Source of the DNA: an uncultured Clostridia bacterium
GTDB taxonomy: Bacteria > Bacillota > Clostridia > TANB77 > CAG-508
Length of the DNA stretch: 64,000 nt
Assembly (NCBI GenBank): GCA_947581805.1
Contig: CANPVM010000002.1
Coordinates: 69,599-133,598, forward strand
Direction of reading: 5' to 3'
Shown here: one piece after another, positions 17,927 to 37,648 of the stretch
Layout of the letters: every line of letters begins with the position of its first letter
Position numbering within the stretch: position 1 is the stretch's first letter
Notes under the pieces: model-generated
Told to the model about the DNA's origin: nothing
Databases searched by the model: none
The model's input: only the letters and a program-made list of their open reading frames with translations
Program-made: the position numbers and the translations under genes

Positions 17927-18808
17927 TTAAGCTCTTGGATGAGCTTTTTTATATACATTTTTTAATCCACTATCTTGAAATTGCATATATACTTGTGTAG
18001 AGGAAATATCAGAATGTCCAAGCATTGTTTGAATTGCTTTCAAGTCTGCTCCATTTTGTAAAAGATGTGTTGCAAAAGAATGTCTTAATACATGTGGGGT
18101 AATATCTTTTGTAATGTGAGCTTGTTCTTTATAATATTTTACAATTTTCCAAAAACCTTGTCTTGTTAATCTTTGACCATTTACATTGACAAATAAAGCT
18201 TTTACACTTTCGTCACGAATTAAAACTGGTCTTGCTTCTTCAATATATTCTTTTAATGCTTTTAAAGCAATAGCACCTAAAGGAATATTTCTTTGTTTTG
18301 AGCCTGAATGGCATACAACATAGCTTTCATCTAATTTTACATCTTGAATATCTAGAGAAATAATTTCTGTTACTCTCATTCCCGTTGCATAAGCAAATTC
18401 TAACATTGCTTTATCTCTAGTTCCTTTTAAGTCTACATCTTTTGGTTGGTCTAATAACAATTCTACTTCTTTTGCTGTTAGTACGCTAGGTGCTCTTTTT
18501 TCAATTTTTGGTGATTGAATATGTGCTGTTGGGTCTTGTTTTACTTTTTTATTTTTTACTAAAAATTGGTAGAAAGAACGAATAGAAGCTAAATTTCTTG
18601 ATATTGTAGATGCTTTCTTTCCTACTGATTGTAAATAATCTAAATAATTTTTAATATCTTCTTCTTTTACTTTTGCATAATTAATTTTATTGCTTTCTAC
18701 ATATTTGTTGTAGTATACAATATCTCTTCTATAAGATTGTAATGTGTTATCTGATGCTTTCTTTTCATTTTGAAGAAATTCTAAAAAAAGTTTTACTTGT
18801 TTTTCCAT
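17927..18808 (-). CDS. xerD: Tyrosine site-specific recombinase of the XerC/XerD family.
   Basis: The C-terminal catalytic region carries R...HxxR...Y (LRHSFATHLL and LGHSDISSTQVY); 293 aa. Confidence 0.8.
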   Translation of the reverse strand: MEKQVKLFLEFLQNEKKASDNTLQSYRRDIVYYNKYVESNKINYAKVKEEDIKNYLDYLQSVGKKASTISRNLASIRSFYQFLVKNKKVKQDPTAHIQSPKIEKRAPSVLTAKEVELLLDQPKDVDLKGTRDKAMLEFAYATGMRVTEIISLDIQDVKLDESYVVCHSGSKQRNIPLGAIALKALKEYIEEARPVLIRDESVKALFVNVNGQRLTRQGFWKIVKYYKEQAHITKDITPHVLRHSFATHLLQNGADLKAIQTMLGHSDISSTQVYMQFQDSGLKNVYKKAHPRA

Positions 18809-31658: not shown

Positions 31659-32540
31659 TTAAGCTTGCTTTTCATCATCTTTATCTTTTATTTCTCTCAA
31701 AGTTTTTTGCTCTATATATTGATAATTCAAAGAATTCTTTTTGCTAATTATGGTTTCTCCTAATTTCTTTTCTAAATCATCTCGCGCAATTTTGGCTACT
31801 TCTCCGCCAGCTTTTGCCACTTTTTTATTTTCTTTTAATCCATAAGGTTTATGTTTTTTGGCAAGTTCTCTTGTAGCTATTTCTCCTAAATCTGTCAATG
31901 CTACTTCTACATCTGACATATTATCTCTTAAAGATTCTTTTCTAATACCTTTGTATGCTTTATATTCTGAAGCTTTCATACCTGACCAAGTTTTATATAT
32001 TTCGTTTGTTAGAACTGCAAATTCGTAATTTTCTTTTATTCCATTTTCTTTCCATACATCTGTTAATTTATTTCTATCTAATATTCCTTTTAGTCTAGCT
32101 TCAATCCATTTATCTGAATAACCACGATTTCTATAATAATCTATTGCTCTTTTTATTGCTATTTCAGGATCAAAAACTTCATCAATTCTTTCTTTTCCTA
32201 AAGATGCAAGCCATAATTTAAAAGGTTCTGCTTTTGAACTTGGAACTGATTCTATTAACCTTAAAATGCCTTGTGTGTCTAAAGTATCAGTCAAATAGCT
32301 TTTTCCATCTTTATTTGATTTTAATTTCAGTTGCACGATTTTTTCGTGCAACTCACTTCCTTCATTAATTAATTTTCGTTTTAAATCACTCCAATAGTTT
32401 CTTGGAATTTTACTATCTGTTAATGCATGAATAACATCAACTACACTGAAAAAGTATTCTTCTTTTTCTGCATTCCAAATGCTTCTTATTTCTTTGCCTT
32501 CAAAAAGATTTGAAATTGTTTCTAATTTATTGATTGCCAT
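31659..32540 (-). CDS. DNA-damage-inducible protein D (DinD)-like Bro-N domain protein.
   Basis: The N-terminal Bro-N-like region and the C-terminal region resemble DinD (..YKGIRKESLRDNMSDVEVALTDLGE..); 293 aa. Confidence 0.55.
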   Translation of the reverse strand: MAINKLETISNLFEGKEIRSIWNAEKEEYFFSVVDVIHALTDSKIPRNYWSDLKRKLINEGSELHEKIVQLKLKSNKDGKSYLTDTLDTQGILRLIESVPSSKAEPFKLWLASLGKERIDEVFDPEIAIKRAIDYYRNRGYSDKWIEARLKGILDRNKLTDVWKENGIKENYEFAVLTNEIYKTWSGMKASEYKAYKGIRKESLRDNMSDVEVALTDLGEIATRELAKKHKPYGLKENKKVAKAGGEVAKIARDDLEKKLGETIISKKNSLNYQYIEQKTLREIKDKDDEKQA

Positions 32541-34585: not shown

Positions 34586-35950
34586 TTATGTCAATTCTTT
34601 CAAAGATAGCACTGCAACGCACTCCACATGGCTCGTAAATGGAAACATATCTACCGGTTGTATTTCATTTACTTCATATTTTTCTTCTAATAATTTCATG
34701 TCTCTTACCATAGTCGCTGGATTGCAACTAATGTAAACTACTTTTTTAGGTTCTACTGCTAAAATATTGTTAATTGTGGTATTGTCTAATCCTTTTCGTG
34801 GTGGGTCTACCATAACAACATCTGGATAAACTTGTTTCTTTTCTATCAAATTCGTTAAAACTTTTTCAACATCTCCTGCTATAAATTCAATATTTTCTAT
34901 TTGGTTAATTCTTGCATTTTCTTTGGCATCATAGATAGCTTGTTCTACAATTTCCACTCCATAAACTTTTTTCACATAAGAAGAAGCAAAAATTCCAATG
35001 GTGCCTATACCGCAATATAAGTCAAATAAAATATCCTCTTTGCTTAAATTTGCCATTTCAATTGCTATATTATATAGAACTTCGGCTTGCACAGGGTTTA
35101 CTTGGTAAAAAGACATAGGAGAAATTTTAAAGGTATAATCTCCTAAAATATCGTAAATATATCCATCTCCGTGAAGCACTATATTTTCTTCTCCTAAAAT
35201 AACATTGGTATTTTTTGTGTTGATATTTTTTACAACCGTCTTTACATTATAACGTTTTACTAGCATTTCTACTAATTCTTGCTCATATGGAATTTTATTT
35301 CCATTGACAACTAAAATACACATAATTTCATGCGTGCGAATTCCTACTTTTATTACAATATGACGAAGCAATCCCTCTCTTGTTTCTTCATTATAAACAG
35401 AAATATCTTTTTCTATGATAAATTTTTGAATAGCAAATGCTATTTCTTGTGACATGGTATTTTGAAGGAAACAATCTTGCATTGGAATAATTTCATGAGT
35501 TCTTTTTGCAAATACACCAACTACTTTTTCGTTTTGTTTATTTATTCCTACTGGAAATTGTGCTTTGTTACGATAATGATAAGGATTTCCCATTCCAATA
35601 GTTGGCTTTACCTTCACATTTTTATTTAAAGTTTTGCTTACTAAATTTTGCACCATATTTTGCTTAATGTTTAGTGTTTCTTCATAGTCGATATGGCGAA
35701 GACTACAACCTCCACATCTTTGATAAGTAGCACAATCACTTTCTATGCGATAAGGAGATTGTTCTATAATTTCTAGCAGTTTTCCATAAGCATAAGAAGA
35801 TAACACTTTTACAATTAGAATTTTTACTTTTTCACCTTTCATGGCATTTGGAATAAAAACAGTAAAATTTTCTATTTTTGCAATGCCTTCTCCTTCCATT
35901 CCATAATCGATAATATTTACAATATATTCCTCATTTTTCTTAATTTCCAT
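34586..35950 (-). CDS. rlmD: 23S rRNA (uracil-C5)-methyltransferase of the RlmD/RumA type.
   Basis: Has an N-terminal TRAM domain, an Fe-S Cys cluster (CGGCSLRH) and the SAM-binding MTase motifs DLYCGIGTIG and the PPR region. Confidence 0.85.
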   Translation of the reverse strand: MEIKKNEEYIVNIIDYGMEGEGIAKIENFTVFIPNAMKGEKVKILIVKVLSSYAYGKLLEIIEQSPYRIESDCATYQRCGGCSLRHIDYEETLNIKQNMVQNLVSKTLNKNVKVKPTIGMGNPYHYRNKAQFPVGINKQNEKVVGVFAKRTHEIIPMQDCFLQNTMSQEIAFAIQKFIIEKDISVYNEETREGLLRHIVIKVGIRTHEIMCILVVNGNKIPYEQELVEMLVKRYNVKTVVKNINTKNTNVILGEENIVLHGDGYIYDILGDYTFKISPMSFYQVNPVQAEVLYNIAIEMANLSKEDILFDLYCGIGTIGIFASSYVKKVYGVEIVEQAIYDAKENARINQIENIEFIAGDVEKVLTNLIEKKQVYPDVVMVDPPRKGLDNTTINNILAVEPKKVVYISCNPATMVRDMKLLEEKYEVNEIQPVDMFPFTSHVECVAVLSLKELT

Positions 35951-36009: not shown

Positions 36010-36396
36010 CTATTCTGTTTTTTCAATATTTTTTTCACTCTTCTTTGCAATTCCTAATCTGTAACATCCTACAATTGCAAATATAAAAAATGAAATGCAG
36101 AAAATAGTAATAAGCATAGACTTTGTTTCTTTATTTTGATATATCATTAAGAAACTGGTCATTGCAACGCCGCCAGAACTTGTACATATTGCATCTAAAA
36201 TATTGTCTTTTACATTTTCTTTGAGAATAGCATTCCAAACTGCTTCAATTACCACCATAAATATAACCCAATACATAAGTATGGTTATGACGACAATTGG
36301 AAAGCTTAAAGAAATTTTAGTTTTAATCCATACTTCTAAAAGTATTGCCAATACTAATCCAACAATTGTGCAACATAAGCTTTTCCGGTTTACCAT
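36010..36396 (-). CDS. Hypothetical membrane protein (128 aa, four TM helices).
   Basis: Called on hydrophobicity profile only. Confidence 0.35.
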   Translation of the reverse strand: MVNRKSLCCTIVGLVLAILLEVWIKTKISLSFPIVVITILMYWVIFMVVIEAVWNAILKENVKDNILDAICTSSGGVAMTSFLMIYQNKETKSMLITIFCISFFIFAIVGCYRLGIAKKSEKNIEKTE

Positions 36397-36502
36397 ATTT
36401 TTTCCTCCTACAAATTATTGTTTTGAGTGGTTAATACAAAAACTTACTTTTTTATTATACGCTTTTTGTTGATTTATATCAATCTTTTTATATACTATTA
36501 TT

Positions 36503-36548
36503 AGTAATATAAACAAATGAAGCCACAAAATATTGTGACTTCATTTGT
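36503..36548 (-). terminator. Rho-independent terminator of the SCIFF gene.
   Basis: On the minus strand: CAAATGAAGTCACAA-TATTTT-GTGGCTTCATTTG followed by TTTATATT. Confidence 0.55.
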
Positions 36549-36568
36549 TGTTTTAGAACAAAAATGTG

Positions 36569-36712
36569 TTACTGCTTCTTTTCACAGGTCTGATTGCCTA
36601 CTGTGCAAGAAGTTTTACATGCAGATTGGCAAGATGTTTGACACTCGCCACAGCCACCTTTTTTCATAGATTCTTTCCAATCTCTGGTAGCTAACGTCTT
36701 TACATGTTTCAC
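36569..36712 (-). CDS. scfA: SCIFF ('six cysteines in forty-five residues') ranthipeptide precursor, 47 aa.
   Basis: Translation: MKHVKTLATRDWKESMKKGGCGECQTSCQSACKTSCTVGNQTCEKKQ. A GTG start with GGAGG 7 nt upstream. The ORF is under 60 aa so it is absent from the ORF track. It matches the conserved GGCGECQTSCQSACKTSCTVGNQ core. Confidence 0.85.
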   Translation of the reverse strand: MKHVKTLATRDWKESMKKGGCGECQTSCQSACKTSCTVGNQTCEKKQ

Positions 36713-36817
36713 TTTCTGTTCCCTCCTTTCTTAAGGTAAAACAACAGTATGATTTGGTTACTCTTTTATTATAATTGAATTTTAAGAATTAGTAAATATA
36801 AAAATTAAAAAACACCA

Positions 36818-37648
36818 TTATATATTGGTGTTTCTTGTTATTTCTCTCTCTTTATTTAATAATGCTTTCATTCTTGATTTTGCATCTATTTTACTTTTAT
36901 GCTCAAAAGTTTTAAAACGATTTGGATTAGTATCATAAACTAATTCTATATTAGGCAAATATTTTTTCTTGGTAAATGCTTTTTTATTAAAAATAGAAAG
37001 CAATTTATTTTTCATTTTATCAAAAATTGTTTCTTCTATTTTTAATAATGCTGTTACTTTCCTTTCTGAAAATACTTTTAAACTGTTTTCGTCAGATACT
37101 ACATAATATTCATCATATTGTTCCATTTGCACTGTTTTGCCTTCTTCTAGTTTTTCACAAATAGCTTGAATCATATCAACACGACTAAATTTTCTAGGTT
37201 CATATTTAATTACTTTTTCAGGATTTACATCATTTACACCAAATAAACATACAAATTTGCCATCATATATACAAATTTTATCCATATAATTTTCTTGCTC
37301 TTCTAAGTGAGTACCTACATCTGCAATTTCTAGTTTCTCTATTTCGAAATTTTCAACTTCAGCTAAACATGGACATACTACTTCTAATAATACTTTTGAT
37401 TTTATTTTATCAAATTTAGCATCATTAAAAAGCCTATCTTCTAAAGAATTTTCGACATATTTTAAATAATTATTATCTACTTCTTCTTTAGATACAGCTT
37501 CTTTAACATCTGTATGTAAACTAATAGCATCTGACATTTTCTTAATTTTTTCCAAAATACTGTCAAATTCTTCTTTTCTGGTCTTTGTTACTTTTTCAAT
37601 TTCATTTGTTTCTGTTATTTTCTTCTCTTCTTCGTTCATTTTTTTCAC
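36818..37648 (-). CDS. Hypothetical acidic protein (276 aa).
   Basis: An ORF with no recognisable radical-SAM or other signature motif. Confidence 0.4.
   Translation of the reverse strand: MKKMNEEEKKITETNEIEKVTKTRKEEFDSILEKIKKMSDAISLHTDVKEAVSKEEVDNNYLKYVENSLEDRLFNDAKFDKIKSKVLLEVVCPCLAEVENFEIEKLEIADVGTHLEEQENYMDKICIYDGKFVCLFGVNDVNPEKVIKYEPRKFSRVDMIQAICEKLEEGKTVQMEQYDEYYVVSDENSLKVFSERKVTALLKIEETIFDKMKNKLLSIFNKKAFTKKKYLPNIELVYDTNPNRFKTFEHKSKIDAKSRMKALLNKEREITRNTNI

Follow-up and report, generated by a model that had tools for sequence, protein, structure and literature searches.

SCIFF peptides are among the most widespread small peptides of Clostridia, and their biological role is poorly understood. 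Genome mining detects them almost wholly through the adjacency of the precursor gene, scfA, to the maturase gene, scfB. In another class of RiPPs, the prochlorosins, the ProcA precursor genes are scattered and a single ProcM modifies them. The known SCIFF chemistry is the radical SAM formation of thioethers by CteB and Tte1186 (PMC8326336), and in a solved complex (PDB 5WGG) the CteA leader binds the RRE of CteB as a beta-strand (PMC6231123). Concerning function, the SCIFF of C. beijerinckii is reported to be linked to quorum sensing and to the expression of sporulation genes (PMC8326336; Chen et al. 2020 as cited in PMC8102284). According to the curator of the family, each ScfA ought to have a ScfB, and 234 radical SAM genes were counted that lie no more than 500 bp from a SCIFF gene (PMC5300114), so an unlinked scfA/scfB pair is not the documented norm.

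The scfA gene described here stands alone in a 64-kb stretch of DNA, the whole of which was analysed and is called the window. The window has a GC content of 28.9% and encodes GerA/GerB/GerC, SpoIIM, penicillin-binding proteins, RNase Y and a capsule locus. This gene content and the low GC fit an endospore-forming clostridium, and the endospore-former gene set agrees with the clostridial distribution reported for SCIFF (PMC8326336). A sequence-only reading had proposed a 47-aa minus-strand ORF with a GTG start, a strong ribosome-binding site and a terminator of its own; all of these elements were confirmed, the site as GGAGG and the terminator as a 17-bp hairpin. The features of the gene are the following:

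36569..36712, minus strand: scfA coding sequence (47-aa SCIFF precursor, GTG start, MKHVKTLATRDWKESMKKGGCGECQTSCQSACKTSCTVGNQTCEKKQ), read from the sequence
36659..36712, minus strand: scfA leader, residues 1-18, aligning to the CteA 21-mer of PDB 5WGG
36569..36658, minus strand: scfA core, residues 19-47 plus stop codon, with pN of 0-0.03 against pS of 0.5-0.9 among relatives
36721..36726, minus strand: scfA ribosome-binding site GGAGGG (GGAGG at 36722..36726), 8-9 nt 5' of the GTG, read from the sequence
36768..36796, minus strand: sigma-70-like scfA promoter TTTACT-17-TATAAT, 10/12 matches in a consensus scan
36512..36549, minus strand: intrinsic-terminator-like hairpin of scfA (17-bp stem, 4-nt loop, U-rich tail), from RNA folding

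The proposed SCIFF identity of the peptide holds. It matched TIGR03973 over its full length with 86.1 bits (E 1e-24, cut-off 50) and PF13165, also over its full length, with 86.2 bits (cut-off 27), scores so far above the cut-offs that a chance match is excluded. Its six cysteines, at positions 21, 24, 28, 32, 36 and 43, follow the SCIFF spacing C-x2-C-x3-C-x3-C-x3-C-x6-C, and columns 19-41 are identical to those of 80 canonical SCIFF peptides, the closest matches listed. The leader alignment extends over the whole 21-residue CteA fragment that was crystallised together with CteB (PDB 5WGG), and K2, K5, T6, L7, S15 and K18 are kept as in canonical SCIFF peptides; judged by sequence, the leader is of the type bound by the RRE domain of ScfB. 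This is an ordinary, typical member of the SCIFF family; what is unusual is its gene arrangement, which does not make it a system of a new kind.

The terminator hairpin has a folding energy of -23.6 kcal/mol (z -6.18), and none of 200 shuffled sequences was as stable. The promoter-like site lies just beyond the interval that the earlier reading had assigned to the transcription unit. A search of the whole 64-kb window against Rfam gave no matches. The genes and signals that surround scfA are:

36818..37648, minus strand: acidic 276-aa protein, upstream neighbour, of a lineage-restricted family; no Pfam/NCBIfam match above cut-off
36807..36836, minus strand: terminator of the 276-aa gene, from a sequence scan
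36010..36396, minus strand: 128-aa multi-pass membrane protein, downstream neighbour; weak sub-threshold PrsW match (18.9 bits against a cut-off of 225)
36454..36482, minus strand: promoter-like site of the 128-aa membrane protein gene, TTGATA-17-TATAAT, from a consensus scan
34586..35950, minus strand: RlmD/RumA 23S rRNA methyltransferase, 454-aa ORF; TIGR00479, 451.6 bits
37828..40455, minus strand: pyruvate,phosphate dikinase (PPDK), in a block with the 276-aa gene and scfA that is kept across the lineage

The PPDK ORF as listed reaches 40653, and this N-terminal extension looks spurious. Since scfA has its own signals, the upstream gene ends in a terminator and the downstream gene is preceded by a promoter-like site, scfA looks like a self-contained monocistronic unit with its own predicted promoter, ribosome-binding site and terminator. 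The earlier proposal of a self-contained transcription unit is in line with this and with signals that are kept in kind across six sublineages.

We compared the locus with the 80 closest SCIFF loci listed, which represent one genome per bacterial species, are 71-91% identical and, being mostly from Lachnospiraceae, lean to one family. In 80 of 80, loci cut by a contig end included, a homologue of scfB was found on the same strand, starting 8-494 bp downstream of scfA. The encoded proteins were 56-100% identical to a positive control, the ORF that follows the SCIFF gene in locus L005 and that is a true ScfB by its 789 bits on TIGR03974. The assumption that adjacency to scfB is the norm is thus borne out among these loci, and together with the curator's statement it means that the stand-alone scfA truly departs from that norm. 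When the window was compared with the 80 canonical loci in search of the scar of an scfB deletion, no shared genes were found.

The claim that no radical SAM maturase lies nearby was examined over the whole window. A scan for CxxxCxxC in all ORFs of at least 80 aa returned none except one spurious 84-aa antisense ORF, and tblastn with the verified ScfB of L005 (E <=1e-3) gave no matches, which leaves about 36 kb on one side of scfA and about 27 kb on the other free of scfB. The flanking genes had been described as a small membrane protein and an acidic hypothetical protein, and they proved to be the 128-aa and 276-aa proteins, neither of them a radical SAM protein. The only nearby ORF of maturase size is RlmD; it was considered as a hidden maturase and rejected, as its 451.6 bits on TIGR00479 identify it and it is not a radical SAM protein. 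Around the orphan scfA genes of relatives, no scfB was found in the sequence inspected, up to 10 kb to either side. A single radical-SAM-like ORF, of 550 aa, occurs near one of these genes (L094). It is not ScfB, having no NCBIfam match and lying inside an inserted island.

This island (L094 11270..15137) follows scfA directly and is missing from the otherwise identical L091, L092 and L095. It encodes a dTMP-kinase-like protein, the 550-aa CxxxCxxC protein and a NADAR-family protein whose score on the anti-phage NADAR model is below threshold (78.9 bits, cut-off 240), together with 156-aa and 198-aa ORFs that are GreA-type and CYTH-type by the look of their sequences. It may be a defence island.

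The stand-alone arrangement is shared by a whole lineage. At the same site, scfA was found on 23 independent metagenome contigs, with no scfB in the flanks inspected (up to 10 kb). The contigs, one of them 947 kb long (ERZ27249603 NODE_1), represent seven sublineages of one low-GC lineage. The gene order is PPDK, then the lineage-restricted 276-aa gene, then scfA. Three ENA metagenome contigs (L001-L003) belong to the species of the window itself: their RlmD is exactly that of the window, their genes stand in the same order and their scfA is identical. In six further sublineages (L084-L097 and L109-L114, GC 27-30%), scfA directly follows the 276-aa gene in each contig fetched, and the 276-aa proteins of the five aligned sublineages are 69-91% identical to that of the window. 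Since PPDK is just about 69% identical between the two deep branches of the lineage, the arrangement is old.

The transcription signals were compared in the window and five relative sublineages, leaving L109 aside. In five of the six sublineages inspected, window included, TTTAC[TG]-N17-TATA[AC]T was found at the equivalent place, and the remaining one has a weaker -35; the motif is kept although the surrounding intergenic sequence has diverged. A purine-rich site of the Shine-Dalgarno type precedes scfA in all relatives inspected, and a strong terminator hairpin follows it in 5/5 relative sublineages folded, with unrelated sequences.

The genes downstream of scfA vary: an asparagine synthase, small opposite-strand ORFs, the island of L094 or, in the window, the membrane protein and RlmD. 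The 128-aa membrane protein gene is absent from the scfA loci of relatives. The synteny of the window species with its relatives is confined to the block of PPDK, 276-aa gene and scfA, with a breakpoint just downstream of scfA. The sequence-only reading had suggested that the locus might have been rearranged; a breakpoint does lie there, but relatives with other downstream genes also have no adjacent scfB, and so this breakpoint is not what orphaned scfA. An scfB adjacent to scfA in an alternative assembly had been named as the finding that would contradict that reading, and none appeared on the 23 independent contigs. The stand-alone scfA is neither an assembly artefact nor the product of a recent rearrangement. 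An ancestral order of 276-aa gene, scfA and scfB was absent from the JGI metagenome loci and the more distant relatives of the 276-aa family that were searched. In L098-L105, scfA itself is missing from the site: in six of these (L098, L100, L101 and L103-L105) the 276-aa gene is followed by an unrelated one of about 170 aa, while L099 and L102 have neither scfA nor that gene. The SCIFF system is thus dispensable there.

Some observations concern the region at large. The PPDK of the window shares 99.3% identity with its L084 counterpart and 95% with the one in L091, whereas the adjacent 276-aa proteins share just 91% and 75%; this gap could reflect unusually strong constraint on PPDK or gene exchange between sublineages. 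Beyond PPDK, uvrB (41695..43649, minus strand) is split into at least three ORF pieces:

43500..43649, minus strand: uvrB ORF with the N-terminal 49 aa, ending out of frame
42674..43408, minus strand: uvrB ORF with the UvrB_inter domain
41695..42738, minus strand: uvrB ORF with the Helicase_C and UvrB domains, overlapping the UvrB_inter piece

The fragmented gene is either a pseudogene or the result of assembly frameshift errors. At 48714..50944 (minus strand), a ParB_N-domain protein adjoins a PAPS-reductase/DUF3440 protein, a pair that presumably resembles IbrB/IbrA; pairs of this kind form a two-gene module frequent on mobile or defence islands. The window also encodes a Bro-N-domain protein at 31659..32540, whose Pfam label is that of its identical counterpart on L001, and, at 17927..18808, a tyrosine recombinase of the XerC/D type, both on the minus strand. 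Along with the synteny breaks that flank the block of PPDK, 276-aa gene and scfA, these two genes hint at regional mobile-element activity.

Conservation of the ORF in relatives had been set beforehand as a test of the sequence-only reading, and the ORF proved to be conserved and under constraint. Six orphan scfA genes were compared pairwise, codon by codon. Within the 26-codon core, each pair differed by 8-16 synonymous changes (pS 0.48-0.94) but by only 0-2 replacements (pN 0-0.033), and in the leader pN was 0.02-0.21 against a pS of 0.41-1.2. Eight orphan peptides and the 80 closest canonical peptides listed have the same column pattern, with K2, K5, T6, L7 and G19-Q41 invariant and with positions 8, 11-14 and 42 variable in orphan and canonical peptides alike. 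This pattern of substitution indicates that scfA is under strong purifying selection and is a functional gene.

Gene callers miss it, as had been foreseen for short-ORF calling: scfA was left uncalled on the three same-species contigs (L001-L003). The ATG-initiated scfA genes of relatives (L091-L093 and L109-L114) were called and labelled PF13165 whereas the GTG-initiated ones of L001-L003 were not: it is the shortness of the gene together with its GTG start that hides it from annotation.

Of the neighbours of scfA, the 276-aa gene alone is kept in all seven sublineages. Its family comprises 261 homologue clusters, the best 120 of which all trace back to metagenome assemblies or to genome records without annotation (Logan, ENA, JGI, NCBI), and it has 26 representatives among 1.84 billion proteins. 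The protein gave no Pfam or NCBIfam match above cut-off and no PDB match by sequence, and it carries no cofactor or RRE signature; its AlphaFold model has a pLDDT of 59, and Foldseek returned no match for it at E <=0.001. In more distant relatives of the family (L121-L128, GC 24-29%), the next gene encodes a protein of about 580 aa and there is neither scfA nor scfB. This pairing suggests an ancestral two-gene unit; the protein of about 580 aa is likewise uncharacterised. Since the 276-aa gene also occurs without scfA, it is a positional neighbour and not an obligate partner.

These observations are probably best explained by an ordinary SCIFF precursor whose gene is transcribed by itself and which a distantly encoded ScfB modifies in trans. 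With a sigma-70-type promoter and a terminator of its own, scfA would yield a monocistronic transcript. In the peptide, residues 1-18 would serve as a family-typical leader for the RRE domain at the N-terminus of ScfB, a radical SAM/SPASM maturase, and residues 19-44 as the invariant six-cysteine core in which ScfB would form thioether cross-links. The genes for precursor and maturase would be unlinked in this lineage, and a ScfB encoded elsewhere in the genome would act in trans and modify the scfA peptide, whose product may act in signalling, as reported for solventogenic clostridia. The leader keeps the conserved positions of ScfB-linked SCIFFs, and it is most simply supposed that a ScfB still reads it. 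Two points tell against this explanation: scfA is absent from the site in L098-L105, and the documented norm is a linked pair. In addition, the search for the maturase reached over the 64-kb window and over flanks of up to 10 kb at the loci of relatives, and a ScfB of the lineage was seen in neither.

That result would also agree with a lineage that has no ScfB at all, in which SCIFF either acts unmodified, for instance as a metal- or redox-active peptide rich in cysteine, or receives its cross-links from another enzyme. We consider this unlikely. Every flank inspected was free of scfB, as was the window, and scfA is free-standing at a site where genes come and go; however, the search covered just a small part of each genome, SCIFF occurs with ScfB in all 80 of the closest loci listed, and a leader that retains the residues of ScfB-linked SCIFFs is hard to explain if it has no binding partner. 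The 276-aa protein might instead be a functional partner of SCIFF (a chaperone, a regulator, an exporter adaptor or a new modifying enzyme), and the kept adjacency would then be accounted for. It is indeed the sole neighbour retained in the seven sublineages while downstream genes vary, and with 26 representatives its family is as narrow as the orphan arrangement. Yet a terminator and a promoter stand between the two genes, the 276-aa gene is found without scfA in L098-L105 and in the more distant relatives, and the protein shows no cofactor or RRE signature and no Pfam, PDB or fold match, its model being of low confidence (pLDDT 59), so that we find such a partnership quite improbable.

The two remaining readings deny that there is a working stand-alone gene. 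The ORF is short, begins with GTG, is missed by gene callers and has been lost from the site in some sublineages, all of which would suit a chance ORF or a remnant decaying after the loss of scfB. Such an origin is very hard to reconcile with an HMM E-value of 1e-24, with synonymous sites near saturation that go along with only 0-2 core replacements per pair of sublineages, and with the retention of promoter, ribosome-binding site and terminator, no frameshift or loss of a cysteine being seen in relatives. Finally, an assembly error or a very recent rearrangement could have parted scfA from an adjacent scfB. The synteny breakpoint directly downstream of scfA in the window species points that way, and the fragmented uvrB could indicate sequence errors; but the scfB-less order recurs in 23 contigs from different samples and assemblers, one of them of 947 kb, and scfB is also missing in relatives with other downstream genes, and we give this last explanation practically no weight.

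Maturation in trans remains the reading that we favour, and the consequences differ with where the maturase is. Should ScfB merely be encoded at another genomic site, the finding amounts to a minor point on gene organisation. If no ScfB were present, SCIFF would have a role independent of ScfB or there would be an unrecognised cross-linking enzyme, for which the 276-aa neighbour would be the only positional candidate. In either case, RiPP mining based on adjacency and short-ORF filters miss real precursors, and the lineage, with scfA at the site in some sublineages and absent in others, offers a natural test of the co-occurrence of precursor and maturase.

Compared with the SCIFF/ScfA precursors already described (CteA of Clostridium thermocellum and Tte1186a of Caldanaerobacter subterraneus), the window peptide is alike in length, in the MKH[IV]KTL...KKGG leader and in the invariant six-cysteine core GGCGECQTSCQSACKTSCTVGNQxCE. 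It differs in its GTG start and in the missing downstream scfB, and the W12 of its leader was found in no other SCIFF peptide compared. Two public SCIFF variants were also noted: P0153, with two tandem leader copies within one ORF, and P0219, with an in-frame duplication of QSACKTSC that results in eight cysteines. Of the canonical scfA-scfB cassette, in which ScfB is a TIGR03974 radical SAM/SPASM protein such as CteB, the window has the precursor half, which is under selection. The maturase half is missing from it, as it is from all flanks of relatives inspected, and the locus is not a canonical cassette. The prochlorosin ProcA/ProcM system resembles it in having stand-alone precursor genes with their own signals and a modification in trans, which for scfA is presumed. 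That system belongs to another RiPP class with another chemistry, and scfA is a single gene at a fixed locus as against a multigene family that is dispersed. The reciprocal case is that of the NCBIfam family NF040492 ('not_ScfB'), a ScfB-related radical SAM/SPASM orphan maturase. There the enzyme lacks a peptide, whereas in the window the peptide lacks a nearby enzyme. The curation of NF040492 shows that uncoupling within the SCIFF system is already recognised.
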